NCBI GenBank assembly: GCA_963789065.1
Contig: CAWBKA010000014.1
Location: 114,171-178,170, forward strand
Origin: an uncultured Verrucomicrobiae bacterium
GTDB taxonomy: Bacteria > Verrucomicrobiota > Verrucomicrobiia > Chthoniobacterales > JAFAMB01
DNA length: 64,000 bases
Reading direction: 5' to 3'
The notes under the pieces are model-generated. The model had not been told where the DNA came from. It was given only the letters and a program-made list of their open reading frames with translations, and did no database searches. A program made the translations under genes and the position numbers. Below are positions 7,873 to 47,214 of the stretch, one piece after another (the first letter of the stretch is position 1; every line of letters begins with the position of its first letter).

Positions 7873-8038
7873 GGGAGAGGCGTGTCGGCTCACACAAAGG
7901 ACACCAAAGTCACCAGGATTTTCAAAAGTTCAATAAAATAGCAGGAATTGGGAATCTTCGCGATATCCAGTCGGCGTTTGGCGTTCGTTCAGGCGTGCTG
8001 CTCGGACGCCGACACGCCCACACGCCGATACGTTCCGC

Positions 8039-8474
8039 TCACCTGTGCGGCAAATCCTGCATGCGTCGCCAAGCGGATACGACGGCAGGGTCGCTGATAT
8101 ATTTCACTAACAGGTCACCAAGTTTTTCCGCGAGATCCAGATCTTCCTTGGCGAAAAAATTGAAGCGCTCGATCGCTTTCTGGCATAACGGTGGCGCATT
8201 CTCGGGGTTTCCCTGGTCAATCTCGAATACAGCGCGATCCAGCGGAGCCATTTGGCGCCGCCAGTTTACCATTTCATCGACGTATTGGTTAATGACATCC
8301 ACCGCTTGTCTCGAATCTGCCACCCCATTCGCTCTTTTTCTCAATCACCCGCAGGATCGCGATGTGGGCATCAATCAATCGGGCGTAATCTTCACAAATG
8401 TCGGCAAAAATGCTGCTCGCGCCGAACACAAGTAACGTGAGGAGTAGTAACCGCGAAAGGGTTGAGGTCAGCAT
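8039..8474 (-). CDS. Hypothetical secreted protein (one apparent frameshift near 8340)
   Basis: ORF 8289-8474 has a signal peptide and joins ORF 8039-8344 at an A-tract. Confidence 0.55.
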
Positions 8475-8623
8475 TTGGATGGGGCGTGTTCAGTGCATCA
8501 TCGTTCGAGTTTCTAAGACCTCCATGAATAAATTTTTGCCTTCGCCGTCCTCGCTCGCGATATCTAAGTGCAAAGTGCAGGTAACTTCACGCCTTTTCCA
8601 GAATTACCTTTCCACTTGATTGT

Positions 8624-9793
8624 TTATTCGGAGCGCCATGCCATGATGGCCCCTGAAAGCGCCTCAATCTGCTCCGGCGTGTGAGACGCAGAGAGGGCGA
8701 TCCGAATTCGCGCGGAGCCTCGAGCGACCGTCGGATAACGGATTGCCGGAACAAGGAAACCGGATTCCAGAAGGGATTCTGCCAAGCGCACGGTTTGCTG
8801 CACCTCCCCTGTCACGACGGGAAAGATGGCGCTTGCCGGCTCGAAACCTTGGCGCAACTTCGTTGCCAGACCTTTAGCCAAAAGGAAGACGTTGTTCCAA
8901 AGCCGTGAGCGTAGCAGATCGCCCTCCCGGGTGCCCAAAATCTCCAGCGCGGCGGATCCCGCTGCAGCGCAAGCCGATGGCAAGGCGGTCGAATAAATGA
9001 AACTGCGGGCGGTATTGACCAGAAGCTGGATCAAGGTTTGAGAACCACATATAAATCCGCCGCTCACGCCCAGCGCCTTACTCAAAGTTCCCATCTGAAC
9101 CTCTACCTGTTGCGTAAGACCGAGCGCGTTGACGAGGCCGGAGCCCTGCGGACCGATAACGCCCGTGGCGTGCGCCTCATCGACCAGAAGGACGGCTCGA
9201 AATTCGTTCTTCAGTTCAACTATCGCGGCGAGATCTCCGCAGTCGCCGTCCATGCTGAAAACGGATTCGGTCGCAATAAGCACTTTGCCTTGCGGTCGCA
9301 TTCGCTGAGCCCAGTCGAGGAGCTGTTTAAGCTTTTTTAGGTTATTGTGGGGAAACACGCGTAAGAGAGCTCCCGAGAGTTTCGCGCCGTCGATGAGACA
9401 GGCATGACAGAGCTTGTCCAGGATGATGACATCACCCGGACCGATCACGCTGCAAATTGTGCCGACTGCCGCTGCGTATCCTGAGCCGAATAAAAGAGCG
9501 CTCTCGGTGCCCTTGAAGGCGGCGATTTCCTTTTCCAATCCTGCATGCGGAGATTGCGTCCCGGTGACCAGCCGGGAAGCGCCTGATCCAACGCCGTAGC
9601 GATCGATTGCCGCCTTGGCCGCAGCCTTGACCGATGGATGTTGAGAGAGTCCGAGATAATCGTTTGAGGCAAAATTTACCAGGCGGCGGTTGGCCACTAC
9701 GACAATTGGCCCCTCGATCTCCTCGATGGTCCTGAGTTCGCGAAAAAGCGATTGCTGCCGAAGCCGGCTCAGAAATTGGTCATAAGAGAGCAT
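8624..9793 (-). CDS. bioF: 8-amino-7-oxononanoate synthase
   Basis: NFASNDYLGL, GSGASRL, VFSMDGD, VDEAHATG and GTLSKALG (PLP lysine). Confidence 0.95.
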   Translation of the reverse strand: MLSYDQFLSRLRQQSLFRELRTIEEIEGPIVVVANRRLVNFASNDYLGLSQHPSVKAAAKAAIDRYGVGSGASRLVTGTQSPHAGLEKEIAAFKGTESALLFGSGYAAAVGTICSVIGPGDVIILDKLCHACLIDGAKLSGALLRVFPHNNLKKLKQLLDWAQRMRPQGKVLIATESVFSMDGDCGDLAAIVELKNEFRAVLLVDEAHATGVIGPQGSGLVNALGLTQQVEVQMGTLSKALGVSGGFICGSQTLIQLLVNTARSFIYSTALPSACAAAGSAALEILGTREGDLLRSRLWNNVFLLAKGLATKLRQGFEPASAIFPVVTGEVQQTVRLAESLLESGFLVPAIRYPTVARGSARIRIALSASHTPEQIEALSGAIMAWRSE

Positions 9794-9917
9794 GGTAAAA
9801 GCCAAAGATGAGAAGTGAACCGCAGATCCCACAGCGCCGCGCAGCCTCGGCAGGAGATTTTTAACCACAGATTACGCGATTACACAGATTATTTAGGTCC
9901 GGATTGATGATGACAGA

Positions 9918-10025
9918 AGGTGAGAGGTGAGAGGTGAGAGGTGAGAGGTGAGAGGTGAGAGGTGAGAGGTGAGAGGTGAGAGGTGAGAGGTGAGAGGTGA
10001 TAGGTGAGAGGTGAGAGGTGAGAGG
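9918..10025 (+). repeat. Heptamer tandem array (GGTGAGA), about 15 copies
   Basis: Read directly from the sequence. Confidence 0.98.
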
Positions 10026-10049
10026 TATAGACCCCGTTACCCCTCTGCG

Positions 10050-10370
10050 CCGCCAAACGCCGAACGCTGAACGCCGAACGCCGAACGCCAAACGCCAAAC
10101 GCCAAACGCCAAACGCCGAACGCCGAACGCCGAACGCCGAACGCCGAACGCCGAACGCCGAACGCCGAACGCCGAACGCCGAACGCCGAACGCCGAACGC
10201 CGAACGCTGAACGCTGAACGCCGAACGCCGAACGCCGAACGCCGAACGCCGAACGCCGAACGCCGAACGCCGAACGCCGAACGCCGAACGCTGAACGCTG
10301 AACGCCGAACGCCGAACGCCGAACGCCGAACGCCGAACGCCGAACGCCGAACGCCGAACGCCGAACGCCG
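10050..10370 (-). repeat. Heptamer tandem array (GGCGTTC on minus; GAACGCC on plus), about 45 copies
   Basis: Read directly; variants AAACGCC and GAACGCT. Confidence 0.98.
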
Positions 10371-10373
10371 TCC

Positions 10374-11153: not shown

Positions 11154-11251
11154 AGGCCAAAATCGATTCAGACCGATCGGAATTTCCAACCCGGACCCCA
11201 AACCCCACACGCAAAACTCAAAACTCAAAACCCAACGCGCAGCGCGCAGCC

Positions 11252-12058: not shown

Positions 12059-12522
12059 GGTAAGCAAAGACTTCGTTTCACTAACTGTTCCGCGAACACT
12101 CTGCAAGCCTTTGGCGAATCTACAGAAGAGAGCAAAGGGAAACAGAAGGGAGCGAAGAGATTTTGAACAGAAGGCCGCAAAGGAAACGAAGATTGATCGG
12201 GAATTGGGCTTTGGGCCGTTTATCCCGAGCTGGGTTCTCCACGAGCTTGTATCCTCAGCTCATTTCGCTGTCCCAAATAATGGCTCAAATTCGAACTATC
12301 CCCAGAGGACAGCGAAGGATCCCTGATTGCGGCGCACTCGTGGACTATACTCCCTGGGTTCGACCGACTTTCTCTGGCGGATGCGAAGCGCCCGTTGTCG
12401 GGACGAAAGCCGGGAACCGACACGCCGATACGCCGATACGCCGATACGCCGATACGTTCCCCGCCCGCTCGCGTTCGAGATGAATGGCCGCTATACTTGG
12501 TCTGCGACGTCAGAAAAAATAT

Positions 12523-13830: not shown

Positions 13831-14557
13831 TTTTGAGGTCGTCTCGGACGACCGGCTTATCCGGCCAAAGGGTAAGGTGGTGATTCGAATCCATCAGATT
13901 ACCAAGGAGTACGAGATGGGATACACGTTAATCCGGGCGCTCAAGGGTGTAGACCTTTTAATTCATTCCAACGAGTACGCAGCGATTATGGGTCCCTCAG
14001 GGAGCGGGAAATCGACCTTGATGAACATGCTCGGCTGCCTCGATACACCGACAGCCGGGCGTTATGAATTTAATGGAATAAACGTTGGCTCAATGGAGGA
14101 CGATGAGCTTGCCGAGATTCGCAATAAAAAGATCGGGTTTGTTTTTCAGACCTTTAATCTGCTTCCGCGTTCCACCAGTCTGCAGAATGTTGAGCTTCCG
14201 CTAATCTACGCCGGGCTAAGAGCGGAAGAACGCCGCCGGCGCGCCGAACATGCGCTGGAAACCGTGGGGTTGGGGGACCGTATGCAGCATAAACCGAACG
14301 AACTCTCCGGCGGTCAGCGCCAACGGGTCGCAATAGCGCGCGCTCTGGTAAACAATCCCGCGATCATCCTGGCAGACGAACCGACGGGGAATCTGGATTC
14401 CAGAACCGGCGAAGAGATTATGGTGCTGTTCGAGAATCTGTATGCCACTGGTCACACGATTGTCGTGGTGACCCACGAGCAAAATGTCGCACGTCGTGCC
14501 AGAAGGATCGTGCGAATGCGAGATGGCCTCATTGAGAGTGACGAGGAATTGGGCTGA
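13820..14557 (+). CDS. ABC transporter ATP-binding protein (MacB/LolD-like)
   Basis: [17 protein letters not shown] and ADEPTGNLD. Confidence 0.95.
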
Positions 14558-14679
14558 GGCGTATCGGCGTCGGGGCGTATCGGCGCGGTAGGGTCGCGCT
14601 CCCGCGCGACCGGCGTGGTACGACAAACGAACGTGTCCGCTTCCTCTTTAAATAAGCCGTTTGCGGAAAGAGTTCTCGC

Positions 14680-15999
14680 ATGAAAGACACGCCGATACGC
14701 CCAAACGCCGATATGCCGATACGTCTCCCCCGAACCGCCGTTGCGCCGATACGTCTCCCCACCGTGCTGATTGAGAGCTTCCGCATCGCCGCTCAGCAGG
14801 TCGCGGCTAACCGGAGCAGATCGATACTTACTGCTCTGGGGGTCATTATCGGAATCGTCGCTGTCACTCTCATGGGTACGGCGATTCGTGGCATTGACAT
14901 CGGGTTTGATCGCAGCATGTCCGGCTTTGGCGACGATGTCCTGTACGTTGAGCAGTGGCCTTGGAATACGGGCGACGACTATTGGCACTTTCGAAATCGT
15001 CCAGACATTAAGTTATCCTTTGCGGATCGCCTGAACCATATCATCGAGGAAAGTCCGGACTCTCTCCTGGATCTGGCCGTTGCTGCGCCGGCGTCCATTC
15101 AGACGGTCTCCTATGGTAAACGGCAGATTTCGAATGTTTATACCATGGGCACGACTCATGAGTATGCCTACCTATCCCGGACGGATTGTGAAAAAGGTCG
15201 ATTTCTTGACGAGGCCGAAAGCCGAGGAGGAAGAAACGTTTGTGTGATCGGTCGGGATGTTGCGAGCGGGCTGTTCAGCGGAGAAGATCCGATGGATAAG
15301 GTGATTCGGGTTCGCGAACAAGAGTACCGAGTCATCGGAGTTTTCGCTAAGCAGGGTTCGTTTCTAGGAATTTTCAGCTGGGATTCGCAGGTCGTGATTC
15401 CTCTTGCGTCCTACACTAAATACTTCAAGTCGAATGAGGAAAACGCTTCGATTCGGGTGAAGATCAGAGACAAAATTCGAATAGCTGAAGCAAAGGAAGA
15501 ACTCAGAGGCGATTTCCGGCGTATTCGAGGACTATTACCGGAGCAGGAAGATAATTTTGCCATTAACGAACAAAAGGTACTTCGATCGTCGCTCGAGCCG
15601 GCAAAGACAGGTTTGGCAATCGCCGGGCTATTTGTTACCGGTCTTGCGCTCTTTGTCGGCGCTATCGGAATAATGAATATCACGTTTGTCAGCGTGAAAG
15701 AGCGAACTCGGGAAATTGGGACGCGGAAAGCGTTGGGGGCAAGGCGGGGAACGATTCTAATCCAATTTCTGATTGAGGCAGTCTCAATCTGTCTGATCGG
15801 CGGAATCATCGGCCTCGGCCTGGCGTTTGGATTGTTTGTTCTGATTGCCGCTGTATTCCCAAATTTTCCCATGCAATTTTCGCCGATCCTGGTCGTGATT
15901 GCTCTATTCGTCTCGGTAACGACAGGGATCATCTCCGGTTTTGCTCCAGCCTGGCAGGCATCCCGCTTAAATCCGGTGGAAGCTTTGCGCTACGAGTAG
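14680..15999 (+). CDS. ABC transporter permease (MacB/FtsX family); the start may instead be GTG at 14764
   Basis: RSILTALGVIIG, GIMNITFVSVKERTREIG and LNPVEALRYE. Confidence 0.93.
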   Translation: MKDTPIRPNADMPIRLPRTAVAPIRLPTVLIESFRIAAQQVAANRSRSILTALGVIIGIVAVTLMGTAIRGIDIGFDRSMSGFGDDVLYVEQWPWNTGDDYWHFRNRPDIKLSFADRLNHIIEESPDSLLDLAVAAPASIQTVSYGKRQISNVYTMGTTHEYAYLSRTDCEKGRFLDEAESRGGRNVCVIGRDVASGLFSGEDPMDKVIRVREQEYRVIGVFAKQGSFLGIFSWDSQVVIPLASYTKYFKSNEENASIRVKIRDKIRIAEAKEELRGDFRRIRGLLPEQEDNFAINEQKVLRSSLEPAKTGLAIAGLFVTGLALFVGAIGIMNITFVSVKERTREIGTRKALGARRGTILIQFLIEAVSICLIGGIIGLGLAFGLFVLIAAVFPNFPMQFSPILVVIALFVSVTTGIISGFAPAWQASRLNPVEALRYE

Positions 16000-16001: not shown

Positions 16002-17225
16002 ATGAAGATGTGGGAAATCGCTAAAATGGCTTGGCAGGCATTGCGGGTAAACAAGCTGCGTTCCGCGCTGACCACCTCAGGAATCGCGATCGGGATATTT
16101 TCGATCATCAGCGTCATGACAGCGATCTCCGCTCTGCAAACCTCGATTGAAACCGGGCTAAGCTTTCTGGGATCGAACATCTTTCAGTTCTCCAAGTCTC
16201 CGGTTGGGATCAAGGTCTGGGGAGACGAGAAGTACCGGAATCGGAGGAAGATCGATTACCAGACTTACTTGAATTTTGTTCGGATATTCGGAGACGAGGT
16301 GGAAGTAATCTGTCCCAAGGTTTGGGATGACAGCACGCAAGCGGCCTTTGAGAACAAGAAGACGAACCCAAACGTTGAACTTTGTGGTACTAACCAAGGT
16401 TTCCTGGCCGCCAATAACTTCAGAATTGCTGATGGACGGAATCTTTCGCCGGAAGATATCGCTTTCTCACGCAGCGTTTGCGTGGTTGGCCAGCAACTTG
16501 TCCGGCGGCTCTTCCCGCAAGGGAACGCCTTGGGAAGTGTCATCAAGCTGAACGCGAAGAACTACACAGTGCTCGGGACTCTCGCGGAGAAAGGCAGCAG
16601 CTTTGGTGGAAACGAAGACAATATCGCCCTGATTCCGATCACCAAGTTCTTTGAAAACTACGGATCTCGCGAGCGATCATTGAACATTGCGATCGAGGCT
16701 AAGAACCAGATTGTTTACGAACGAACGATGGGGAAAGCGATTGGTGCTTTTCGAATCTCGCGCGGTCTCCGTCCGGAAGAGGCGGATGACTTTGAGATCT
16801 ACAGTAACGATTCGCTCGCTGATGTCTTTCGCAGCATCGCGGCCACGATTCGAATCGGGGCATTCGTTATCAGTGCGATTGCCCTCTTGGCGGCGGGGGT
16901 CGGCATTATGAACATCATGCTGGTCAGTGTTGCTGAGCGCACCAAGGAGATCGGAATACGCAAGTCGCTCGGAGCGCGCCAGCGTGACATCCGGACGCAG
17001 TTCCTTCTCGAGGCCCTCTTTTTATCTTTGTTCGGCTCGGCGGGAGGTATCATTCTTGGGGTGTTAGCTGGAAACGGGCTAGCAATCTGGCTAAAAGCTG
17101 CGCTGGTCTTCCCCTGGGGTTGGGCCGTCGCCGGGGTTTTGGTCTGCTCCGCGATTGGAGTCGGATTCGGGCTCTACCCGGCCCACAAGGCTGCGCGCCT
17201 CGACCCGATCGAGGCGCTGAGGTGA
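16002..17225 (+). CDS. ABC transporter permease (MacB/FtsX family)
   Basis: NKLRSALT, GIMNIMLVSVAERTKEIG and LDPIEALR. Confidence 0.93.
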   Translation: MKMWEIAKMAWQALRVNKLRSALTTSGIAIGIFSIISVMTAISALQTSIETGLSFLGSNIFQFSKSPVGIKVWGDEKYRNRRKIDYQTYLNFVRIFGDEVEVICPKVWDDSTQAAFENKKTNPNVELCGTNQGFLAANNFRIADGRNLSPEDIAFSRSVCVVGQQLVRRLFPQGNALGSVIKLNAKNYTVLGTLAEKGSSFGGNEDNIALIPITKFFENYGSRERSLNIAIEAKNQIVYERTMGKAIGAFRISRGLRPEEADDFEIYSNDSLADVFRSIAATIRIGAFVISAIALLAAGVGIMNIMLVSVAERTKEIGIRKSLGARQRDIRTQFLLEALFLSLFGSAGGIILGVLAGNGLAIWLKAALVFPWGWAVAGVLVCSAIGVGFGLYPAHKAARLDPIEALR

Positions 17226-17248
17226 AGGGAAGGAGCCGAAGGGAAGGA

Positions 17249-17495
17249 GCCGAGTAGCCAGTAGCCAGTAGTCGGTAGGCAGTAGCCGAGTAGCCGAGTA
17301 GCCGAGTAGCCGAGTAGCCGAGTAGCCGAGTAGCCGAGTAGCCGAGTAGCCGAGTAGCCGAGTAGCCGAGTAGCCGAGTAGCCGAGTAGCCGAGTAGCCG
17401 AGTAGCCGAGTAGCCGAGTAGCCGAGTAGCCGAGTAGCCGAGTAGCCGTAGCCGTAGCCGGGAGCCAGTAGCCGAGGAGCCGGTACCAGGTAGCC
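17249..17495 (+). repeat. Octamer tandem array (AGTAGCCG), about 21 perfect copies plus degenerate flanks
   Basis: Read directly. Confidence 0.97.
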
Positions 17496-17859
17496 GATGA
17501 AGCTTTGACCGCGGCACGTGCTGCGCAGGGGGGGTCCGCTTGGCATTACCATGAGCGCGGTAAGATTCAAGCGAAGCGTGGTAGGCGACCGCGGCCGGCG
17601 CGGCACCCCCAAAGAGGATCGGTTCGGCGCGTCGCGCGGAACGGCGCTTTTTTACTCTCGACATCTCAACCCTCCGTGAACCCGTGGCCTCCGTGTGAGA
17701 ACTCGGGCAGCTACGTCACGCGGTCACACGCCGACGCGGCCCATACGGTCTTCTTTTGGACTGCCACGCCGGACGCGCGGGAGCGCGTCCCACGCCATGC
17801 GGGCAGCTACAGTCACGCGTTGAACGATTGTGGGTGTGCACGTGTTGGCGTCCTCGGTA

Positions 17860-17940
17860 TTCGCCTACTCGGCTACTGACTACTGACTACTGACTACTGA
17901 CTACTCGGCTACTCGGCTACTCGGCTACTCGGCTACTCAA
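17860..17940 (-). repeat. Inverted partner array (CTACTGA / CTACTCGG on plus) overlapping the recO stop codon
   Basis: Read directly. Confidence 0.95.
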
Positions 17941-18471: not shown

Positions 18472-18567
18472 GAAAATGCCGGGAGCGACCCCTGGCCTGT
18501 CCCCGAAAGGGTGAATGGTGAGTGGTAGTTCACCGTTCACTGGCGTATCGGCGCCACCTCTCACCTC

Positions 18568-19995
18568 TCACCTCTCACCTCCCCTCGGTCTGGGCGGGAT
18601 CGAGAAGGCCTGATTGTTCACCGCCAAAGCCGCTTCCTTGACTGCCTCACTCATGGTCGGATGGGCATGAACCGTCTTGCCAAGATCCTCAGCGCTGCCA
18701 CCGAACTCCAGAATCGTGACGGCCTCTGGAATCAGTTCCGAGGCACCGAATCCGATAATCTGCGCCCCCAACAATTTGTCAGTTTTAGGATCGGCCAGGA
18801 TCTTTGCGAACCCTTGAGTTTGGTCATTGGCCAGTGCCCGGCCGTTAGCGACGAACGGGAATTTGCCGACTTTGACAGCGATCCCCTTTTGTTGGGCAAG
18901 ATCTTCAGTGAGGCCAACACCAGCGACTTCAGGGTTAGTATAGACGACGTTCGGGATCGCGTCATAGTTGACATGCCCGGCTTTCCCGGCAATGCGTTCG
19001 ACACACGCAACACCCTCGTCTTCTCCCTTATGCGCGAGCATCGGCCCTTCGATCACATCGCCTATGGCGTAGAGTCCAGGAATATTCGTACGGTAATATT
19101 CGTCGACTGCGACCCGGCCGCGCGGAGTCAATTTGAGTCCGAGATCCTTTGCCACGGCTCCGTCCAGGTACGGTTTCCGGCCAACTGCAACGAGCACCTT
19201 CTCCGCGCGGAACTGCAGTTCTTGCTTTCCCTTGTCAACGGCATCAATGGTGGCGGCGCCATCCTGAACGACAACCGAAGTTACCGTTGTTTCGAGATGA
19301 AATTTGAGGCCTTCGGATTCCAGTGATTTTTGGAGAACCTGAGTGACATCCGGATCAAAGAAAGCCGCGATTCTTGGGAGAAACTCAATCACGGTGACCT
19401 TCGCGCCAAGCCTGGCCCAGACCGAACCGAGTTCCAGGCCAATCGCACCGGCGCCAATCACGACCAACTCCTTCGGTACTTGATCGAAAGAAAGGGCTTC
19501 ATCGCTCGTGACCACCGTTCGCCGGTCGATACTGATATTCGGCAACTCCGCCGGAACGCTGCCGGTCGCGAGCACGACGTGCCTGCCTTGCAATTCTTCC
19601 TGTTTTCCATCCTTCGTCGTCAAAACGACTTTGCCTGGCGCGACCACCTCGCCGACTCCAAAAAGGCGGGTGATCTTATTTTTCTTCATTAGGAATTCCA
19701 GCCCCTGAGTGAGCTGTCGAACGACGTCTTGTTTTCGCTTCATCATTTGCGCCAGGTCAAAACTGACCTTTTCGAACTTCAGCCCGTGTCGAGCGGCCTG
19801 GTGCTGAGCAAAATGAAAATGGTCCGACGACAACAGCAGCGCTTTGCTCGGGATACAACCGATGTTAAGGCAAGTGCCGCCCAAAACCTCTCCTTTGTCG
19901 ATAATCGCCGTATTTAGACCGAGTTGAGCAGCCCGAATAGCTCCGGTGTACCCGGCCGGGCCGCCGCCGAGTACGATGAGATCGAAAGACGCCAT
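18568..19995 (-). CDS. lpdA: Dihydrolipoamide dehydrogenase
   Basis: [28 protein letters not shown] and HAHPTMSE. Confidence 0.97.
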
Positions 19996-20028
19996 GGATC
20001 TATGGTTGACTGAAAGTCCAGTCGGATC

Positions 20029-20253
20029 AAGGTGAGAGGTGAACGGAGGTGAGAGGTGAGAGGTGAGAGGTGAGAGGTGAGAGGTGAGAGGTGAGAGGTG
20101 AGAGGTGAGAGGTGAGAGGTGAGAGGTGAGAGGTGAGAGGTGAGAGGTGAGAGGTGAAAGGTGAGAGGTATCCCTCGCGCCCGCCGAACGCCGAACGCCG
20201 AACGCCGAACGCCGAACGCCGAACGCCGAACGCCGAACGCCGAACGCCGAACG
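20029..20253. repeat. Head-to-head heptamer arrays: (GGTGAGA) about 19 copies, then (GAACGCC) about 10 copies
   Basis: Same two units in the same order as at 9918-10370. Confidence 0.97.
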
Positions 20254-20263
20254 TCTTGTTTCT

Positions 20264-21043
20264 ATGCGGAGTATCATACCTTGGATGGCCTTCGTGCTCT
20301 GCCTGTCGCTGGTTTCGTGTGCCTCTCCGCCAGCGATGGAACGAAGAATCGTCGCGGCAGATGCGAACGAACAATTCTGGGGCGCAGTCGAAAAGGCGGA
20401 TGTAGTCTACGTCGGCGAAACGCATGATGACCCGGCCCACCACGAGTACGAAAGGCGACTGATCCGCGACTTGTTGAGGCGAAAGGTGAAATTCGCGGTG
20501 GGCTGGGAGATGTTTGATGAAACCCAGCAAGAATGGATTGATGCCTGGGCCTCACATAAAATCTCTCTCGGACAACTGCTGACCAAGACTGACTTTCAGA
20601 AGCGCTGGGGAATTTACTCACCGGTGTATGAGGAGATTCTGCGAACAACGGGGAAGGCGAACGTTCGCAACCTCGCTCTCAACGCGCCGGGCCAGCTGGC
20701 TCGAAAGATTGCTCGGGCGGAGCCGTTGACCGCGGATGAAAGGGCGATGTTGCCGTCCGGGTTTGTCGCGGATGGGGGAGCGTACAAGAATTTCGTTAAA
20801 CTCATTGGCGAGCATCCGGGTGTCAATGAGACCGATCGACGGCGTTACTTTGATGCGCAGAATCTCTGGGACCAGACGATGGCCAGCCGGATTCTGGAGT
20901 TCGAACGTCGCAATCCGGGCGTGAAGCTGATTGTGTTGACCGGTCGCGATCACGTATCTGGTGGCTACGGGATTCCCTTTTATTTGAGACAGAAAGCGGA
21001 TTTGAAACAGCTGGTGCTGCTGCTCAATGGCGGAAGCCATTGA
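20264..21043 (+). CDS. ChaN family (DUF399) lipoprotein
   Basis: Lipobox LVSC; VVYVGETHDDPAHH, EMFD, AQNLWDQTMA and GRDH..GYGIP. Confidence 0.88.
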   Translation: MRSIIPWMAFVLCLSLVSCASPPAMERRIVAADANEQFWGAVEKADVVYVGETHDDPAHHEYERRLIRDLLRRKVKFAVGWEMFDETQQEWIDAWASHKISLGQLLTKTDFQKRWGIYSPVYEEILRTTGKANVRNLALNAPGQLARKIARAEPLTADERAMLPSGFVADGGAYKNFVKLIGEHPGVNETDRRRYFDAQNLWDQTMASRILEFERRNPGVKLIVLTGRDHVSGGYGIPFYLRQKADLKQLVLLLNGGSH

Positions 21044-21055: not shown

Positions 21056-21152
21056 GTAGCCAGTAGCCAGTAGCCAGTAGCCAGTAGCCAGTAGCCAGTA
21101 GCCAGTAGCCAGTAGCCAGTAGCCAGTAGCCAGTAGCCAGTAGCCAGTAGCC
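21056..21152 (+). repeat. Heptamer array (AGTAGCC), about 13 copies
   Basis: Read directly. Confidence 0.97.
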
Positions 21153-21318
21153 GAGTACCGAAGACGCCGACACGCGTAAGGCACGAGCGATTGACCAACA
21201 ACGGAAGGGCCTTCCGTGATCCCCCGTGACCTCCCTGCGAGCCTTCCCTCTTCCGGCGCTTGAGCCATGAAGGTCAGATCCCTTGATTCCATGGAATCCG
21301 CGTGAGCCGTCGGGCTCG

Positions 21319-21621: not shown

Positions 21622-21821
21622 TCTACTCGGCTGGCTCCTGACTCCTGACTCCTGACTACTGACTACTGACTACTGACTACTGACTACTGACTACTGACTA
21701 CTGACTACTGACTACTGACTACTGACTACTGACTACTGACTACTGACTACTGACTACTGACTACTGACTACTGACTACTGACTACTGACTACTGACTACT
21801 GACTACTGACTACTGACTACT
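21622..21821 (-). repeat. Heptamer array (CTACTGA on plus), about 27 copies, overlapping the stop codon of the adjacent gene
   Basis: Read directly. Confidence 0.97.
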
Positions 21822-25963: not shown

Positions 25964-26349
25964 AAAGGGTCCACGCTCCCGCGTGACCGGCGTGGAATTT
26001 TACCCAAAGCTCGGTAGGGTCCACGCTCCCGCATGACCGACGCGGAATTTACCCAAAGCTCGGTAGGGTCACGCTCCCGCGTGACCGACGTGGAATTTAT
26101 CCCAAGCTCGGTAGGGTCACGCTCCCGCGTGACCGACGTGGAATTTATCCCAAGCTCGGTAGGGTCACGCTCCCGCGTGACCGACGTGGAATTTACCCCA
26201 AGCTCGGTAGGGTCACGCTCCCGCGTGACCGGCGTGGAACTACCCCAAAGCACGGTAGGGTCACACTCCCGCGTGACCGACGTGGAATTTACCCCAGAGC
26301 TCGGTAGGGTTACGCTCCCGCGTGACCGGCGTTGAGCTACCCCAAGCTC
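25964..26349 (+). repeat. REP array: 8 x ~48-bp units, each GTAG + GGTCACGC-TCCC-GCGTGACC hairpin
   Basis: Units start near 25966, 26016, 26065, 26113, 26161, 26209, 26257 and 26306. Confidence 0.95.
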
Positions 26350-26421
26350 TCAGAGACCTAACATTGCCTCCTGCAAATATTTGACTTCAATCGAAATATA
26401 AATACAACATATATTTAAGTT

Positions 26422-26892
26422 GTGAATATCGATCCATTTCCACAACGGATTCGGCCTGACAAGGGTGTGCTGAGCAAAGAGCATCAGCCCACATTGGTTT
26501 TTGCTACCATCTGCACAAAAAGCCGTACCCGGTGGCTGGCGACGGACGAAAACCATCATCTTCTGCGGACTATCTGGACGGAAGCCACCTTCTGGAAAAT
26601 CGGGCCGTATATCATTATGCCTAATCATTTGCATTTTTTCGCATGGCCTGGGCAGCTCCACGCCGACCTGGATAATTGGATTCAATATTGGAAGTCTGTG
26701 GCCACAAAGCGCCTGGGCAAGCCGGACTGTCGATGGCAACGTGCTTCGTTTCATCATCGTGTCCGCTCTTATGAAGACGCTGACAAGTGGCGTACCTATA
26801 TGTACGAGAACCCTGTCCGAGCGGGTCTTGTTGTAAAGGCATGCGACTGGCAATATGGCGGAGAGTTGTTCAAAACGGATTTTTGGTGGTAG
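26422..26892 (+). CDS. REP-associated tyrosine transposase (RAYT / TnpA-REP, Y1 HUH family)
   Basis: FATICT, YIIMPNHLHFF (HuH), WQRASFHHRVRS and YMYENPVRAGLV (catalytic Tyr); flanked by inverted REP arrays. Confidence 0.92.
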   Translation: MNIDPFPQRIRPDKGVLSKEHQPTLVFATICTKSRTRWLATDENHHLLRTIWTEATFWKIGPYIIMPNHLHFFAWPGQLHADLDNWIQYWKSVATKRLGKPDCRWQRASFHHRVRSYEDADKWRTYMYENPVRAGLVVKACDWQYGGELFKTDFWW

Positions 26893-26905
26893 GTCTCGGG
26901 GAAAT

Positions 26906-27138: not shown

Positions 27139-27216
27139 ACATGCGCGGCCTACGTCACGCGTCCAAGCGCCGACACGTCGATACGCCGATACGCCGATAC
27201 GCCCCCACGCCTCCCT

Positions 27217-33072: not shown

Positions 33073-33464
33073 TTGAACACATTTCTGAAGTTCACCGGGT
33101 GAAGGGCATGCACTACGCACACTGAGAAAGAACAGTTTGGGCGGAAGTTAACCCTTAAAACCCAAGGCCTTCACCGCAACTTCCGGGAGCGCTCGAGCAC
33201 CTCGGAAGGTGAGCACAAATTTGGCCATCCCATGAACAGTCTACCGAAGTGTACTGGCCATTAAGGAAGAGCCTGAGACGATGCAGTGAATCTTGAACTG
33301 ATTCAGGGCCCACAACATCCTCAAGCCCGGGATCTCCCGTGTTACAAAGGAATATATAATCGACCTCCTCGAATCCGGCAACCATTTTGAATTTTGAGTT
33401 TTGCGTTTTGGGTCTTGCGTTTTGCGTTTTGATTTGCGGTAAGCCTCCGGCGGAAGCGCGAAGA

Positions 33465-33664
33465 AGCGAAATCTCGCACGGAGGACACGGTGATCACGGA
33501 GGGTATCAGAGAATTTATTTAGAGTTTGTTAGGGTTGTTCGGATGGATTGTGGCGAGGCACGGCTTAAAAGCGGCGTCAGAAGGATCGGTCAACAATTGC
33601 CAGTAACCTCCGTGATCTCCGTGTCCTCCGTGCGAGAATTTCCTATCTTCGCCTTTCTATTCGA
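33465..33664. repeat. MITE-like element with CTCGCACGGAGGACACGGnGATCACGGAGG inverted ends
   Basis: Inverted arms at about 33473-33503 and 33605-33636; related copies elsewhere in the window. Confidence 0.8.
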
Positions 33665-33762
33665 CTTATGGCGGCGCTAAACGCATACGTTCAGGAGAGC
33701 TTCGCGGCGCAAGATACCGGCGCACCGCTGAGCGAACACGCCGATAGGCCGACACGTTTCCC

Positions 33763-37798: not shown

Positions 37799-37899
37799 GG
37801 TTTTGAGTTTTGAGTCTTGGGTTTTGAGTTTTGCGTTGTGAGTGGTCCTTAGCGGCTAGCCGCACTCAAACGCAAAACCCAAAACTCAAAACGCAAAAC
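37799..37899. repeat. Inverted pair of degenerate heptamer tracts (GTTTTGA)n ... (CAAAACN)n
   Basis: Read directly. Same family at 11196-11236, 33385-33435, 46958-46983 and 47178-47213. Confidence 0.9.
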
Positions 37900-39460: not shown

Positions 39461-39742
39461 AAGTAGTCAGTAGCCGGTAGCCAGTAGCCAGTAGCCAGTA
39501 GCCGGTAGCCGGTAGCCGGTAGCCAGTAGCCAGTAGCCAGTAGCCAGTAGCCGGTAGCCGGTAGCCGGTAGCCAGTAGCCAGTAGCCAGTAGCCAGTAGC
39601 CAGTAGCCAGTAGCCAGTGAGTCGCCAGTAGCCAGTAGCCAGTAGCCAGTAGCCAGTAGCCAGTAGCCAGTAGCCAGTAGCCAGTAGCCAGTAGCCAGTA
39701 GCCAGTAGCCAGTAGCCAGTAGCCAGTAGCCAAGTAGCCAAG
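39461..39742 (+). repeat. Heptamer array (AGTAGCC/GGTAGCC), about 38 copies; inverted partner tract at 40137-40189
   Basis: Read directly. Confidence 0.97.
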
Positions 39743-40128
39743 TAGGAGGTAGCCGAGCGGCCCCGACCTCGAGTGGCAAGCGACGCGCTGCGGCGTGGAA
39801 CGTCTGATAAGCTTCCTTTCGCTGGTTTTGCCACTGGCAACCATCTAACCTCGATCCCTTTTCGCGCGTGGACGCGCGAGAGCGCGTCCCGTACCGCACC
39901 AAACGCGCAACCATGCCAGAAGAAGTAGTCAGTAGCCAGTAACCAAGTAGGAGGTAGCCGAGAGGACCCGACCTTGAGTGGCAAGCGACGCGCTGCGGCG
40001 TGGAACGTCTGATAAGCTTCCTTTCGCTGATTTTGCCACTGGCAACCTTCTAAGCTCGATCCACTTTTCGCGCGCGGACTTGCGGGAGCGCGTCCCGTAC
40101 CGCACCAAACGCGCAATCATGCCAGAAG
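39736..40128 (+). repeat. Two direct copies of a ~187-bp non-coding module, each ending in a REP-like hairpin
   Basis: 39736-39921 versus 39941-40128, highly similar. Confidence 0.93.
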
Positions 40129-40220
40129 CTTGGACCACTACTGGCTACTGGCTACTTGGCCACTTGACTACTTGACTACTTGACTACTCGCCTTCTTGCC
40201 TTCTGATTTACCGCCTAGTC

Positions 40221-40853
40221 ATGCCCGGCCTGTTTATCACTTTCGAAGGAGGCGAAGCGTCTGGAAAATCGACCCAGGTAAAGCGTTTGGAGCGTCGGTT
40301 GGAATTAAGCGGCCGCAAGGTACTAACCGTGCACGAACCGGGCTACACGCAGATTGGATCGGCCATCCGGCAACTCCTCCTGCACGCGAATGAGGGTAGC
40401 TTCATGCGGGCTGAAACGGAATTGTTGCTATTCGCGGCCAGTCGCGCTCAACTGGTTGGCGAAGTAATCCGGCCCGCCCTGGAGAAAGGCTCAGTTGTCG
40501 TATCGGACCGCTTCTACGATTCAACCACGGTTTACCAGGGAATTGGCCGAGGGTTGGATATGGCATTTATCAAGTCGTTGAACGAATTCGCGGTTCGAGC
40601 GTGTCATCCTGACCGTACATTCCTGCTAGACCTTGAGGTCGATGACTCACGCGTGCGCCAGATGCGCAGGGTACGTCCCGTCGGCCAGGATAGAATGGAG
40701 CGGCTCACGAAGGATTTTTACGAACGGGTTCGCTCAGGCTATCTGGAAATAGCGCGCGAGGAACCGGATCGAGTAAAAGTAATTGACGCTTCGCAAAGCG
40801 AAGATGAAGTGGAGGAAGCGATTTGGAGCGCATTGGATGGCCTTCACACTTGA
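40221..40853 (+). CDS. tmk: Thymidylate kinase
   Basis: FITFEGGEASGKSTQ, HEPG and SDRFYDSTTVYQG. Confidence 0.96.
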   Translation: MPGLFITFEGGEASGKSTQVKRLERRLELSGRKVLTVHEPGYTQIGSAIRQLLLHANEGSFMRAETELLLFAASRAQLVGEVIRPALEKGSVVVSDRFYDSTTVYQGIGRGLDMAFIKSLNEFAVRACHPDRTFLLDLEVDDSRVRQMRRVRPVGQDRMERLTKDFYERVRSGYLEIAREEPDRVKVIDASQSEDEVEEAIWSALDGLHT

Positions 40854-41843
40854 CCAGGCTCTAGGCTATCTCAGGGATGCGAATTCCCATGGCAGACTTG
40901 CTCACGCTTTTTTGTTCTCGGGGCCGGACGGGAGCGGCAAACGGCAGCTCGTCTCCGATTTTTTTTCGCTGAGATAAACGCGGAGAAATCCGATAAGGCT
41001 GACATTCACGAGATCGAGCCAGAATCCAAATCCCGGAAGATTCTTGTCGAACAGATTCGGGCTTTGGAAAGCTCTCTCCGGATGCGCGCAACTCGGGCCA
41101 AGACGAAGTTTGGAGTGATTTATGAGGCTGATCGACTGATGCCTCAAGCCGCGAACGCTTTTTTGAAAACGCTGGAGGAGCCGCCGGATCATTCGGTGCT
41201 CATTCTAGTGTCTGCGCTTCCGGAGGCATTATTGGACACAATTCGTTCTCGCTGTATCGAGGTTCAACTGCGCGCTGCCGGCCAGAAAACACTGACGGCA
41301 GAGGAAGCGGAACTGCTGGCGGAATTGTCCGAGATCGTCGGAGCCGAGGGATTTTCGGTCTTTACAGCGCTGAAATTGGCGCGGGTATTCCGGGAGGCAT
41401 TGGGAAAAGTGCGAGACAGGATCGAAACTGAGCACGGCGACCTGCTGACCAAGCGATCGAATCGGCTTACAAGCAGACGACGGATGGCGCATGGCTCGAT
41501 CAGCGAGAGGATCGTCTGTCCGCTTTAACGGAGAGCAGATATGTGAAGGCGCGAGGAGAATCTGGTTCTGAGAATGATCGAGTGGTTTGGTGACGCGTTG
41601 CGCGTCAAACACGAAAGTCCGTTTTTGGATCTGATGGACTATCGAGCGGCTGTCACCGCTCTCGCGGGAAAGATTTCTACTTTTGAGCTGTTGAAAGGAC
41701 TTGGCGCCCTCCAGTCCCTCTTAATGCCCTTTCGAAAAACGTACATGAAGCGCTGGCTGTGGAGGCCGTCTTCCTGGTGGCGTTCGGGCCGGTCGACAAA
41801 GAAACCCAACGGAGACCTTGCCATAGGCCGAATCGCTCGGTAA
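40837..41843 (+). CDS. holB: DNA polymerase III delta-prime subunit (several frameshifts)
   Basis: RLAHAFLFSGPDGSGK, AANAFLKTLEEPP and TIRSRC; follows tmk. Confidence 0.9.
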
Positions 41844-41858
41844 AAAGGGGTTCCCGTT

Positions 41859-42359
41859 ATGCAGCTCTTCCTGTTACGTCACGCCGAGGCTGAACCCTAC
41901 GCAGCCAGCGATGAGAAGCGGACTCTAACCGAAAAAGGCTCGAAGCAAGCCGAGAGCGTCGGCAAGTTTTGTCTCGAGAAGATTTCATTCCGGAGATGAT
42001 TATATCGAGTCCGCTTGTCAGAGCGGAAGAAACAGCGCGACTCGTTGCCCGCGAACTCAATCTGCCGAAGATCGTCAAGATCGCGGACTTTTTGCGGGCT
42101 GGTATGACCTCAGATCGAGCTTTCTCGGGCATTCGTGAGTTGTTGATCGATCTACATGAAGCGGGAGAAATACTCAGATAAGGTCGAGCGTTATGTTGGT
42201 GGGTCACGAACCAGATTTCAGCAATCTGGCTGGGGCGTTGATCGGGGCCGCGCCGGGAATGTCCATTTTCGAAAAGCGACGCTGATGGGATTGACTCTCC
42301 AGGAGTTGAAACCGGGTACTGGGACGATTGAGTTTCTCATACCGGTCAAATGCTTGTGA
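41859..42359 (+). CDS. sixA: SixA-like phosphohistidine phosphatase (frameshifts)
   Basis: LFLLRHAEA, SSPLVRAEETA and VGHEPD across frames. Confidence 0.85.
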
Positions 42360-42771
42360 GGCATTTGGCGTTTAAGTTCACCGTTCACCGTTTGGCGTTT
42401 GGCGATTCATCTCTCGCTCTTTCGGTATGCGCGGTAGGGTTGCGCTCCCGCGCGACCGGTGTGGCAAGTCTCGACGCCTCCGAAACCCTACTTCCCGCGT
42501 TCTTGCCCGTTTGGATGTTTTATTTTATAGACGTGCCACGCCGGACGCGCGCGCATCCCTCCAGTCAAGCGCCGGCGCCCGTCAAACCCCGCGCCCGCCG
42601 AACGCCGAACGCCGAACGCCAAACGCCAAACGCCAAACGCCAAACGCCAAACGCCAAACGCCGAACGCCAACGCCAAACGCCAAAACGCTCCGACGCTGA
42701 CACGCGGGTCAAGTCGTGGTACGGTCGCCGAATGGGAATGTCACCTGCAGGTTTCGCGCTGAGCGAGCTAA

Positions 42772-43588: not shown

Positions 43589-44108
43589 ATGTTGATTCGC
43601 CGATTGAAAGAGAACTCGATCGAGCTCGCGGAAATCGAACCAATCGAAGCCGAATTGCTTCGGAAGGTTCCGAGCGTTTGTGATACCAGGCGGGGACAAT
43701 CGGGCGGAGGCGCGTCTTTTCAGCAGCCCCGCGGAGACCAGCGAGCGCCAGTTTCTGAGCGATTGGGACGAGTACGTGCGGCCAGAGCTTCGTCACCTGT
43801 TTCTTTCGGCCAGGAAAACCGTCGAGGCGGATCTGGAAAGACTGTCGGATCGCCCGGGCCATCTCAGCCGTCTCGTTGTCCCTCAAGCGCACGGCGATGC
43901 ATGGCTAAACACTCTCAACCAGGCCCGATTGATCCTCGCCAGCAAGTTCGACTTCTCCGACGAAGAACTGTCGATGCACGAAGTGCCTAAGTCGTTTTCA
44001 CGTCGCGACCTGGCTCTGCTGCAGATCAACTTTTATGCCGCGATTCAAGAGCGCATCATCGATGCGATAGACCTTGAAGCGGCAGTCGAAGAACCGAGTA
44101 GCCAGTAG
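43589..44108 (+). CDS. DUF2017-like protein (frameshift near 43690)
   Basis: ARLF, W..YV.PEL and AWLNTLNQARLIL; sits directly after clpS. Confidence 0.75.
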
Positions 44109-44411
44109 CTGTCGCCGTAGCCAGTACGACATCCACGGCTCTAAGATGGCGTCGACTAACAGGGTGTAACGAGTTAAAAATTACAGCGCCGAATTCTTTT
44201 GACCCGCACTGCATCCGCTCCTTCCGGTTAGAGGCGCCTCACTTGACTCTTGACTCCTTGGCTATTGGCTACGGCTGCTGGCGCCTGGCTCCTGGCGCCC
44301 TGGCTCCTGGCTCCTGGCTCCTGCTCCTGGCTCCACCGACTCCAAAAAAGTTTCGGCACTCTTAAACAATTCGGATCTTGAAGCCTATAGGCGAGTGGTT
44401 AGGCTGACGGT

Positions 44412-44885
44412 ATGAGTAAGCCTGTTGTCGAAGTGCAGGTTCGCGCTGTCATTCCCACGAGCGGTGGCTGCGCAGTATTTCTTGGCAACGAGGAAAAGGT
44501 TTTCGTGATCTACGTTGATCAGAGCGTGGGTGCCGCAATCACGATGTTCATGCGAGGAACGCAAAAGGAACGGCCGCTCACCCACGATCTGCTGGCGCAC
44601 ATTTTGAGGGCGCTTGGAGCCAGGGTTGAGCGAGTGATCATCAACGATCTTAAGCGAGGCACTTATTTTGCCAGGCTCATTCTCAATGCGGAAAACGAAT
44701 TGCAACAAAAGAAAATTGTCGAGATCGATGCGCGCCCTAGTGACTGTATCGCGATGGCAACGCAGCAAACGGCGCCGATCTACGTAAGTCGCGAGGTCTG
44801 GGACGAAGTTGAGGACATGAGCGACGTACTTCGGAAGATGGAAGAGGAAAGCTCTCAATCCGAGGAAACGGACGAGGAAGAATAA
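44412..44885 (+). CDS. Bifunctional nuclease family protein (DUF151)
   Basis: RPLTHDL and IDARPSDCIA. Confidence 0.92.
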   Translation: MSKPVVEVQVRAVIPTSGGCAVFLGNEEKVFVIYVDQSVGAAITMFMRGTQKERPLTHDLLAHILRALGARVERVIINDLKRGTYFARLILNAENELQQKKIVEIDARPSDCIAMATQQTAPIYVSREVWDEVEDMSDVLRKMEEESSQSEETDEEE

Positions 44886-44979
44886 GGAGAAGTTCGGCCG
44901 GCAGAAAAAGCGCTTTTCCGACCCGATTTTCGCAGCTCTTGATTGAATTTGAAACCTTGTCACTTAGTGTGGCCTCGAA

Positions 44980-46949
44980 ATGACTGAAACGTGGGATATT
45001 CCGTCCGCCATAGCCCTTTACAATATCGATCGCTGGGGTACTGGCTACTTCACTATCAACGGCGCCGGGAACGTTCAGGTGATGCCGACGCAAGCCTACG
45101 GTCAGGCGATCGACCTGATGGACGTGATTGGCGAGGCCCGCGACCGCGGAATGGCTTTTCCGCTCGTAGTTCGGTTCCAGGATCTTCTCAGGCATCGCGT
45201 CGAGACGATCAACCGCGCCTTCCAATCGGCGATCGCCGAGGCGAATTTTCAAAACGTCTACAAAGGGGTCTTCCCGATCAAGGTCAATCAGCTGCGAGAA
45301 GTCGTCGAAGAAATCATGGACGCCGGTCGGCCATTCCACTTCGGCCTTGAAGCCGGTAGCAAACCGGAATTGATCGCTGCGCTTGCGGTACACCGTGATC
45401 CGGACAGTCTGATCATTTGTAACGGTTACAAAGATCCGACTTTCATTCAGAATGCGTTGCTGGGCCGCAAACTCGGCAAGCAGGTGATCATGGTGGTGGA
45501 GAAGCTCGAAGAAATCCGGCAGATCCTCCAGGTTTCCAAGAGAGATGAACGTGATGCCTTTGATCGGGCTTCGGGTGCGAGTCCAATCCAAAGGTTCGGG
45601 CAAATGGGCTACCAGTGGCGGAGAGAACGCGAAGTTCGGATTGTCCACCGCCGACCTGGTTGCCGCGAGTAACTACCTCAAGAGCCAGGGAATGGCCGAA
45701 TCTCTGGTCCTGGTTCATTTCCACGTTGGTTCGCAGAGTTACGGACATCGGCGTGATCAAGCGAGCCGTGAGAGAGGCGGCCCGCTTCTATGCGAAGCTC
45801 TCCAAGATGGGTCATCCGATGCAGTTTGTCGATGTGGGCGGGGGCTCTGGGCGTCGACTACGACGGTTCGCGTACCGCGTTCGACAGCTCGATGAATTAC
45901 ACGCTCCAGGAGTACGCCAGAGACGTTGTTTACAACATCATTGACGTCTGCGAGTCCGAGAAAGTGCCGCACCCGACCATCGTCAGTGAAAGCGGTCGGG
46001 CGATCGTCGCGCATCATTCAGTGCTAGTGGTGGAGGCTTTCGGTTCAATTGAGAAGGGTTCCGCCGATCTGGCCCTGGAAATCAGGGAGTCGGACCCGAA
46101 ACTTTTGCATGAGATGGTCGAAACGCAGAAGGCTCTGTCGAAGCAGAACCGGATGGAAGTGCTTGCACGACGCGCTCCAGATCAAGGAGCAATGCCAATC
46201 GATGTTTGAACTCGGAATGCTCGAACTGGAGAGCAAAGCCAAGATCGAGATCATTTATTGGCAGATCGCACAGTCGGTTGTCGAGCTCTGCCGCGGGATG
46301 CGGTATGTCCCGGAAGAAGTCAAAGAGTTGGAGACCTCGCTCGGAGATCAATACCTCTGTAATTTCTCGGTCTTTCAGTCGTTGCTCGATCATTGGGCGC
46401 TCGGCCAGTTGTTTCCGATTATGCCCGTCCACCATTTGGAACAGCCGCCAGATCGCAACGGTACGTTGGTGGATATCACGTGCGATTCGGATGGAAAGGT
46501 GAGCGAAGTTTATCGACTTGCAAGATGTGAAGGAGACTTTGCCGCTCCATCGGATTCGTCCCGGGGAATCTTACTACCTTGGTTTCTTTCTGATGGGTGC
46601 GTACCAGGATATCATGGGTGACCTGCATAACCTTTTTGGCCGAGTCAACGAAGTACACGTTTTTCTCGATGAAGACGAGGATTCGGGGTGGTACATCGAG
46701 GAAGTCATCGAAGGTAGCACCGTCGGAAGTGTCCTCTCATTGACTCAGTGGGATGAGAATGAGCTTATTCGACTGCTAAAGGCGCAGATTGATGCCGCCA
46801 TTAAGTCAGATCGCCTCAAGCCGAATGAGGCGATGCGTCTCCTGAGCGAATACGAACGTGGCCTGAAGGGTTATACCTATCTGAACTTCCAAAGCGGTGC
46901 GCTCGCCAAGCGTGACACGGGCGTCCCGCCCGTGATTTTGGCGACGTAA
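44980..46949 (+). CDS. speA: Biosynthetic arginine decarboxylase (several frameshifts)
   Basis: YNIDRWG, FPIKVNQ, GLEAGSKPEL, HFHVGSQ, ESGRA, NFSVFQSL.D.W, DITCDSDG and GAYQDIMGDLHNLFG. Confidence 0.96.
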
Positions 46950-47214
46950 GGAGGGAGGGTTTTGGGTTTTGAGTTTTGCGTTGTGTTAAGTCGCCCGCGT
47001 TATTGGCAACCGATCCCCAATGACAACGCGGACTCGCGGGGTACAACAAAAATCAAAGCGCGTGGCGGTAGGGTTGCGCTCCCGCGCGACCGGCGTGGTA
47101 TGTCTGGAGCGCGTCCGCTAAGAGGGACGCTTTGGCTAGATGTGACACGGGCGTCCCCGCCTCAGCAGCTTGCCGCCACTCAAAACGCAAAACCCAAAAC
47201 GCAAAACGCAAAAG

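Follow-up and report, generated by a model that had tools for sequence, protein, structure and literature searches.

Short tandem repeats of 7 or 8 nt face each other across intergenic gaps in the genome of an uncultured Verrucomicrobiae bacterium, and these arrays are very probably the arms of apparently selfish cassettes carrying genes of a four-helix-bundle protein family (S23p; PF05635, TIGR02436). The window analysed was a stretch of 64,000 nt (G000:C14:114171-178170) within the studied genome, G000, a 4.78-Mb metagenome-assembled genome (MAG) of 53 contigs that is 73% complete; genes were called with a simple in-house caller, and their start positions are approximate. The facing repeats are real and their geometry has already been described; here they are tied to a protein family with a layout of one protein and one unit. 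New here are that the elements are not plain shortened cassettes and that the unit-level signature of family A is unlike slippage.

A genome-wide search revealed 432 arrays of period 7 and 106 of period 8, whereas a third-order Markov simulation of equal length gave none, which excluded chance as their source. Of these 538 arrays, 500 belonged to 18 units, for which five families were defined: A (GVGTTTT), B (GGCGTTY), C (GGTGAGA), D (GTAGCCA with its variants) and E (GGCGTRTC). Merging gave 456 arms. The original prediction, made from the letters of the window, had named 11 gaps, and all 11 carried the units given for them at those places, as seen by Tandem Repeats Finder (TRF) and in the sequence. 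Its wording that arrays filled almost every gap was overstated: arms were found in 13 of the 24 window gaps (at least 40 nt, in the studied part) and in 304 of 2585 gaps genome-wide. The window was richer in arms than expected (18 observed vs 6.1), and density was uneven across the genome, with no arms on 11 of 53 contigs and 47 per 100 kb on contig C12.

Among 124 neighbouring arm pairs less than 600 bp apart, 93 were head-to-head, 4 tail-to-tail and 27 in the same direction. The orientation labels were taken from the window examples of the prediction, and the count outside the window was the independent test of polarity: 89 head-to-head vs 4 tail-to-tail pairs (p=6e-22). The side rule, in which the unit is read on the plus strand at the left of a gap and on the minus strand at the right, was obeyed by 355 of 448 intergenic arms, by 187 of 194 lying no more than 30 nt from a gene end, and by 113 of 117 solo arms near gene ends. 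It held in all four classes of gene orientation (88/120, 83/105, 73/91 and 111/132) and showed no association with the sign of the local GC skew (p=0.51), so the claim of a polarity independent of gene direction was borne out. Arms hugged stop codons at a median distance of 9-10 nt, and their ends showed preferred phases, with little conservation outside except in family E.

Of the 96 facing pairs, 67 were inverted repeats of one family and 29 were mixed. The suggestion that the arms, which can differ, are not simple hairpins was overstated in this respect; arms of the same family were predicted to fold into long stems. Not every unit contains GT as supposed, since the minor units GGAGCCA and GAAGCCAA do not. 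The feet of repetitive extragenic palindromic (REP) sequences, also noted in the prediction, were present as GTAG or GTGA in families C and D and absent from the other three of five; the units are not palindromes, and most of the five or more families are unable to form a G-quadruplex. Frameshifts in the assembly suggest a long-read origin. Seven DNA runs contained only 6-12% of the sequence words, and no RNA run was listed as containing them. A Logan contig of run X2 spanned 33354-33562, arm included, and differed there by 2 letters and 3 gaps. This contig, together with the same units in many other assemblies, showed that the arrays are not a long-read artefact, which the prediction had wanted checked.

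Four-helix-bundle genes between facing arms

A PF05635 search of the genome gave seven matches, none within the window, and all five that were tested exceeded the TIGR02436 cut-off. Six genes were intact, each lying between head-to-head arms of a single family (D, D8, E, C, A and B), and the broken seventh was bracketed by a 6-mer. TIGR02436 had been named among the candidate partners, and these genes are indeed bracketed by the units; the GxxExxY and REP-associated tyrosine transposase (RAYT) genes named beside it are not, as five GxxExxY genes had 9/10-mer arms and Y1_Tnp genes had other repeats or none. When all arrays of period 6-8 in the genome were compared with the units of the gene-bracketing arms, 503 of 564 had at most one mismatch, while 300 control draws from the units of relatives gave a mean of 162 and a maximum of 393. 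The closest named relatives of one of the proteins, at 81% identity, were Chthoniobacterales records.

The same layout was found beyond this genome. At 116 loci, comprising 109 from relatives (among 245 matches) and the seven of G000, an arm was present at 99 and both arms at 54, inverted in 50 of the 54, with a median of 4.5 units. For D-type loci, the best 80 of 328 were examined and came from many phyla; 65 of the 80 had an arm and 30 had both arms, of which 28 were inverted, and nearly all of these arms belonged to one AG-R-A-N-N-C class in cyanobacteria, Acidobacteriota, Nitrospirota and others. For control small genes, any arm was found at 38 of 200 and both arms at 1 of 200. In a protein tree of 115 proteins (105 columns, the broken gene of G000 left out, many forks open), the unit type tracked the starred clades across genera, and clade members often lay at differing sites (family E, 13 loci at 10 sites; family C, 5 loci at 5 sites). 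In family f1 the gene implied its unit array in 12 of 12 B-like genomes (at least 65% identity) and 12 of 12 E-like genomes, kin genomes that are not independent and many of whose assemblies are incomplete. The protein likely recognises its own unit.

The predicted structure matched Xcc0516 with a TM score of 0.96 and also matched BT_0352. It has an Avd-like four-helix fold, with a TM score of 0.81 to Avd 4DWL (E 0.047), and weak NF033474 matches under the cut-off were obtained for three of five of these proteins. In the otherwise divergent family alignment, the polar residues Q33, S40, E47 and E70 (with N44 and R35/36) were near-invariant and could mark a ligand or catalytic site. The C arm at locus L142 (G000:C52:60437-60754) reaches the ATG of the gene, and its unit contains GAGGTGA, a Shine-Dalgarno core. 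A tblastn search revealed two further remnants of four-helix-bundle genes, at G000:C24:32497-32961 inside a B-armed element and on contig C16 near 65500.

Unit variants, loops and orthologous gaps

Family A carried the clearest signature at the level of single units. Position 2 in 437 unselected middle units was A in 151, C in 100, G in 183 and T in only 3, and the other positions were 91-99% fixed; in three relatives T was found in 0 of 121. Neighbouring A units were identical at a rate of 0.37 vs 0.34 by chance (120/367 in the middle-unit set), and the 179 A arms showed 135 patterns, with facing arms uncorrelated (0.32 vs 0.35). These results indicate that the short arms of family A arose neither by slippage from a single seed nor by intact copying of a single master. 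In long B and E arrays, neighbour identity was 0.90, the mark of slippage. The cassette's own A arms contained all three position-2 variants, and its neighbouring units alternated, as did those of A arms in relatives (22 of 110 identical). Realigning copying, arm-to-arm conversion, or saturation combined with binding selection could each give this signature. Adenine mutagenesis of the type found in diversity-generating retroelements (DGR) was rejected as a general cause, as the arms of relatives varied at 9.0% of A, 9.3% of C, 6.2% of G and 4.7% of T, and only families A and E varied at their single A. A rule of five units, one per subunit, was also set aside: the median of 4.5 units and the mode at 4-5 fit it, but both are shaped by detection thresholds.

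The sequences inside the arms were partly shared. Inner flanks resembled the flank of another arm in 221 of 451 cases (0 when shuffled) and outer flanks in 57, so that about half of the inner flanks were unique and half were common to other arms, and a short inner tail recurred at 25 A arms. Near-identical inner flanks were found for 26 of 451 arms, vs 33 of 59 for 9-mer elements. Such 9-mer arms of the CACGGAGG type occurred at window positions 3872, 33606, 50221, 50354 and 51047 and at G000:C12:23032; they resembled those around a GxxExxY (PF13366) gene, and their interiors were conserved copies, unlike those of the 7-mer elements. Among 225 gaps with a single arm, 74 had a degenerate partner of the same family, 39 a partner of another family, and 112 none that could be detected.

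Mixed pairs were skewed, with 12 B-C pairs vs 3.1 expected and 0 A-B pairs vs 13.3 expected, and the spacers of the B-C pairs were short and partly related. On one strand, folding of the C/B pairs gives a regular GGUG:CGCC ladder (-59 kcal/mol as RNA and -14 as DNA). RNA pairing was nevertheless rejected as the cause of mixed arms, since duplex energy did not account for the enrichment across 10 mixed classes (rho -0.39, p 0.26), nor was a strand bias seen (5 vs 6). Both arms were long in 8 of 17 short-spacer mixed pairs vs 1 of 22 same-family pairs, but total arm length differed only at p 0.055, and did not differ when family A was left out (p 0.69); avoidance of palindromes as the reason for mixed arms is no more than suggestive. 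Insertion into host hairpin loops was also rejected, as the complementarity of outer flanks showed no excess (4.71 vs 4.72).

The elements were patchily present at orthologous gaps. The lpxD-ridA gap, occupied by family A in G000, held other units in G015, G014, G005, G011 and G033 and was short and array-free in about ten other genomes (30 loci, by eye); its inserts stopped directly before a conserved TTGACA. The gap at 14557-14764 was a coupled stop/start in G007, G011, G006 and G010 (absent in four of five relatives), and G001 had a related E element. At 19995-20264 seven genomes had inserts starting from a single host anchor; in G005 and G011 the left arm was common to both, with different arm lengths and right arms of different families. 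The element at 33383-33762 was missing from one contig each of runs X1 and X4, which belong to one study and were matched at a permitted likeness of 85%; the X4 contig had 32 other letters in its place. The gap of G006 orthologous to window 17225-17917 (loci L177/L170) had D-type arms bracketing a piece of what is presumably an insertion sequence (IS) transposase. No target-site duplication was detected in the 96 pairs, where the longest direct flank match was 4.41 vs 4.33+-0.09 when shuffled. For family A arms in relatives, 6 of 43 groups had a two-sided ortholog, and in 4 of the 6 (by eye; a script flagged 2) G000 also had an A arm, and the loops differed in every case. Family A reached more than five matches in only five genomes of one genus, and the C/B chimera was found only in G000 among 61 genomes.

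Elements of the window

Arms in the window were TRF calls, except for the two-unit arm at 7973-7986, which was found by eye; left arms lie on the plus strand and right arms on the minus strand. That arm, of family B (GGCGTTY x2), faces an E right arm (GGCGTRTC) at 8005-8032, and relatives have E-type or other arms in the same gap. The first mixed C/B element consists of a C left arm at 9918-10026 (GGTGAGA x15.6), a 24-nt spacer and its partner, a B right arm at 10051-10370 (GGCGTTC x45.7). A right-type A arm (GVGTTTT) at 11195-11235 lies directly before a minus-strand stop codon, and an E right arm (GGCGTATC x5) is at 12417-12456. The E left arm at 14558-14585 begins at a stop codon and faces an E right arm at 14689-14723. 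The D left arm at 17248-17497 (GTAGCCGA, about 32 units) faces a D right arm at 17853-17938 (GTAGTCA/GTAGCCGA). The compact recO/lpd gap (18510-18581, no strand assigned) holds a degenerate C left arm, a short E piece and a C right arm at 18555-18581. The second mixed element has a C left arm at 20030-20169 (x19.6), which starts from a conserved anchor in the host sequence, interpreted as a minus-strand -35 box, and after a 12-nt spacer a B right arm at 20182-20253 (x10.3). D arms face each other at 21056-21157 (left, GTAGCCA x14.4) and 21623-21837 (right, GTAGTCA x28).

The RAYT-like open reading frame (ORF) at 26422-26892, which was not matched by PF01797, lies within 25966-27134, flanked by 48- and 65-bp tandem REP arrays with GTAG feet, and an E right arm at 27168-27211 stands outside the REP array. 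The mixed element at 33383-33762 (no strand assigned) has an A left arm at 33384-33432, a 9-mer element in its loop and an E right arm. The A left arm at 37800-37843 in the lpxD-ridA gap faces an A right arm at 37863-37899 that adjoins the lpxD stop codon. The D element with a left arm at 39462-39745 (GTAGCCA x40.7) and a right arm at 40137-40198 (8-mer variants) contains a tandem duplication of 205 bp at 39718-40128, which includes a short arm and a REP. The B left arm at 42364-42404, with ACCGTTY variants, faces a B right arm at 42596-42685 (GGCGTTT x13). The D left arm at 44097-44126 provides the TAG with which an ORF stops at 44108, and it faces a D right arm at 44242-44334 (GGAGCCA variants); at 44097-44108, as at L002 and L005, the stop and last codons of the upstream gene were supplied or altered by arms. 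The A left arm at 46957-46982 lies 8 nt past a stop codon and faces an A right arm at 47178-47213. The ORFs at 40837-42359 and 44980-46949, which resemble housekeeping genes, are broken by frameshifts, probably assembly indels.

Origin of the arms and related systems

Taken as a whole, we lean modestly towards the reading that the arrays form the inverted arms of small elements in intergenic gaps, which share their units with the arms around the four-helix-bundle genes of this genome and were spread by copying; the placement mechanism itself, copying with realignment, is tentative. In this mechanism, a protein pentamer would bind four or five units of arm RNA or single-stranded DNA, and a borrowed polymerase would copy the arms into dispensable gaps. 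Copying would take the arm with some of the inner tail and re-register between units, which would reshuffle the unit variants. Loops and individual arms would later be replaced through arm-to-arm exchange and through REP, 9/10-mer and IS pieces inserted into the loop, which would produce mixed and solo arms. Arms would become pressed against stop codons and promoter boxes as loss beyond those points is selected against, and arrays of more than about 8 units would have been lengthened afterwards by slippage. Remodelling by exchange and nested insertion is supported by the orthologous gaps and the REPs in loops, and the later lengthening is supported by the neighbour identity of B and E. The polarity is independent of gene direction because inverted arms have two-fold symmetry. 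A break followed by rejoining, which the original prediction invoked to explain it, is therefore not needed: an element with inverted arms looks alike from both strands, and the geometry has been published for Xanthomonas heptamers (PMC4692102).

Several results weigh against this copying from gene cassettes. The B and S clades largely share sites (3 and 2 sites, with 9 loci each), and agreement between clade and unit would be expected from inheritance in cis and would be no proof of binding. Arrays were abundant where the cognate gene was not found, in 14 of 24 genomes for B and in 18 of 24 for E; G025, for example, is 93% complete and had 276 B matches. The aligned part of the four-helix-bundle proteins has a median net charge of 0; the relevant passages of PMC6182149 describe Avd as highly positive. 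No reverse transcriptase (RT), transposase or integrase was found among the 69 tested of 219 neighbouring ORFs, and the four RT matches of a PF00078 search, the only RT search made of this 73% complete genome, were read as group II intron pieces; the RT partner that had been proposed was thus found neither beside the genes nor by this search. Loops were singletons in 62 of 70 cases, and coding remnants of the four-helix-bundle gene were detected in 1 of 67 non-cassette loops of at least 30 nt, so the elements are not shown to be shortened copies of cassettes. To these may be added the 112 of 225 single-arm gaps with no detectable partner.

The rivals were ranked, from most to least likely, as telomerase-like writing, old sites under selection, mobilisation by a RAYT, and slippage alone. 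In the first, which we consider unlikely, a polymerase dependent on the four-helix-bundle protein would extend DNA that is broken or incoming, adding units singly to its 3' ends, and these would then be joined around any intervening sequence. This is the model of the original prediction with the protein specified. The near-absence of T at position 2 of family A beside otherwise fixed positions, the 135 patterns, the uncorrelated facing arms, the preferred end phases with little conserved sequence outside, the mostly unique loops, the polarised solo arms and the one empty allele that was replaced and not simply interrupted all agree with it. Bacterial repeat synthesis of this type exists in DRT10 (Tang et al. 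2025, PMC12632851), where the passages on its chemistry describe tandem-repeat synthesis by template realignment; its product is protein-primed cDNA for defence and not chromosomal insertions as here. The repeat-writing idea of the original prediction likewise fits the unique loops, solo and mixed arms, end phases and family A unit independence, and is unproven. Against such writing, no RT with a template RNA was found by PF00078 or in the 69 neighbouring ORFs, the inner flanks common to half of the arms and the inner tail of 25 A arms indicate that more than the repeat was copied, mixed pairs are non-random, 67 of 96 facing pairs are of one family, and the neighbouring units of relatives alternate as in the cassette's own arms. 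That the pentamers are specificity subunits of an undescribed repeat-writing system is doubtful; in it each clade would steer a polymerase to write its own 7/8-mer by single units at DNA ends, so that any DNA, the gene itself included, would be capped with arms and joined into gaps between genes. The fold is that of Avd, described in the main text of Handa et al. (2018, PMC6182149) as an RT helper of DGR; beside the four-helix-bundle genes no RT, template repeat or noncoding RNA was found, and adenine-specific variation was not general.

Arms might alternatively be old host-selected binding sites, inserted early, in which loops and the free position were saturated neutrally and the other positions kept by selection for a role in protein binding or RNA processing. 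We regard this as quite improbable. The four of six orthologous sites sharing an A arm with unrelated loops, the closeness of arms to stop codons, and the Xanthomonas repeats, which the passages on their distribution place at conserved loci and mostly in transcribed sequence (PMC4692102), speak for it, but family A exceeded five matches in only five genomes of one genus, the C/B chimera was found only in G000, congeners can carry other families in the same slot, and near relatives lack the element at 33383.

In REP/REPIN-RAYT systems each repeat family has one small gene and is also scattered between genes in numerous copies that lack it, and the repeats are palindromes of 20-40 nt. Arms that are degenerate REP derivatives moved by a RAYT, as the HUH/REP reading of the prediction implied, are very improbable here. 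The window does contain a RAYT-like ORF (NF047646, 62 bits with a cut-off of 80), and its REP, which has 215 matches in the genome and often lies inside arm-bounded gaps, is six-fold enriched in arm-bearing gaps (58/274 vs 74/1753). However, this gene and the four Y1_Tnp matches have their own, longer and different repeats, the RAYT was not flanked by arm units, and no foot with a palindrome was found, the tetramer being confined to C and D; the REPs lie inside arms (114 vs 15, partly geometric). The arms also differ from REPs in being tandem 7/8-mers with unconserved loops and a partner without a known catalytic domain. Two features of miniature inverted-repeat transposable elements (MITE) were not found either: no target-site duplication was detected and interiors are not near-identical, as the singleton loops show. 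As to terminal inverted repeats with fixed outer ends and a transposase, the arms are inverted with preferred phases, the outside is little conserved except for E, and no transposase was found among the 69 neighbours. Plain microsatellites or assembly artefacts are barely credible. The B/E neighbour identity, the arm-length difference between G005 and G011 and the assembly frameshifts, which leave the lengths of the longest arrays provisional, speak for them; polarity, gene pairing, family A independence, the other assemblies and the X2 contig speak against them. Slippage as the origin of the arrays, which the prediction had also judged insufficient alone, is refuted and stands only for later lengthening.

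Related repeats have been described in other bacteria. The GGGAATC heptamers of Xanthomonas and GGGGA(C/T)T of Nostoc show the same facing geometry (Rehm et al. 2015, PMC4692102). In the sections describing them there is one unit per genome, read as a G-quadruplex former, and neither a link to a four-helix-bundle gene nor mixed arms appears, whereas the arms here have both and form five or more families. The 23S rRNA intervening sequence of Coxiella and Leptospira carries the same protein family within terminal inverted repeats, and tandem heptamers of variable number precede its ORF as they do here (Warrier et al. 2016, PMC4990558). In the passages on that element it is a single copy in rRNA that is cut by RNase III, whereas here both the four-helix-bundle genes and the arms in the window have protein genes beside them and not a 23S rRNA helix, and hundreds of gene-free arms are dispersed. 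The TAACTGA repeats of Beggiatoaceae, Cyanobacteria and Bacteroidetes are intergenic heptamers in fixed orientation upstream of start codons (MacGregor 2015, PMC4679880); they are presented as direct repeats with a regulatory role, in a text that contains neither 'S23' nor 'intervening'. The geometry was thus already published (Rehm 2015), and heptamers before an S23p ORF were published for one rRNA element. A literature search among papers outside subscription found none tying the four-helix-bundle gene family to dispersed arrays.

No origin has been agreed on for the intergenic heptamers described in Xanthomonas, Nostoc and Beggiatoaceae, and for the S23p/four-helix-bundle protein structures have been solved but no function assigned. 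Five or more pairs of protein and unit side by side in one genome allow a direct test of cross-binding. The findings for family A set the origin of the arms apart from slippage and provide a signature that any mechanism must reproduce. For the host, the elements create intergenic gaps at coupled genes and can provide stop codons. If true, repeat writing dependent on four-helix-bundle proteins would be the source of the widespread bacterial heptamers and would give the Avd fold a free-standing function.

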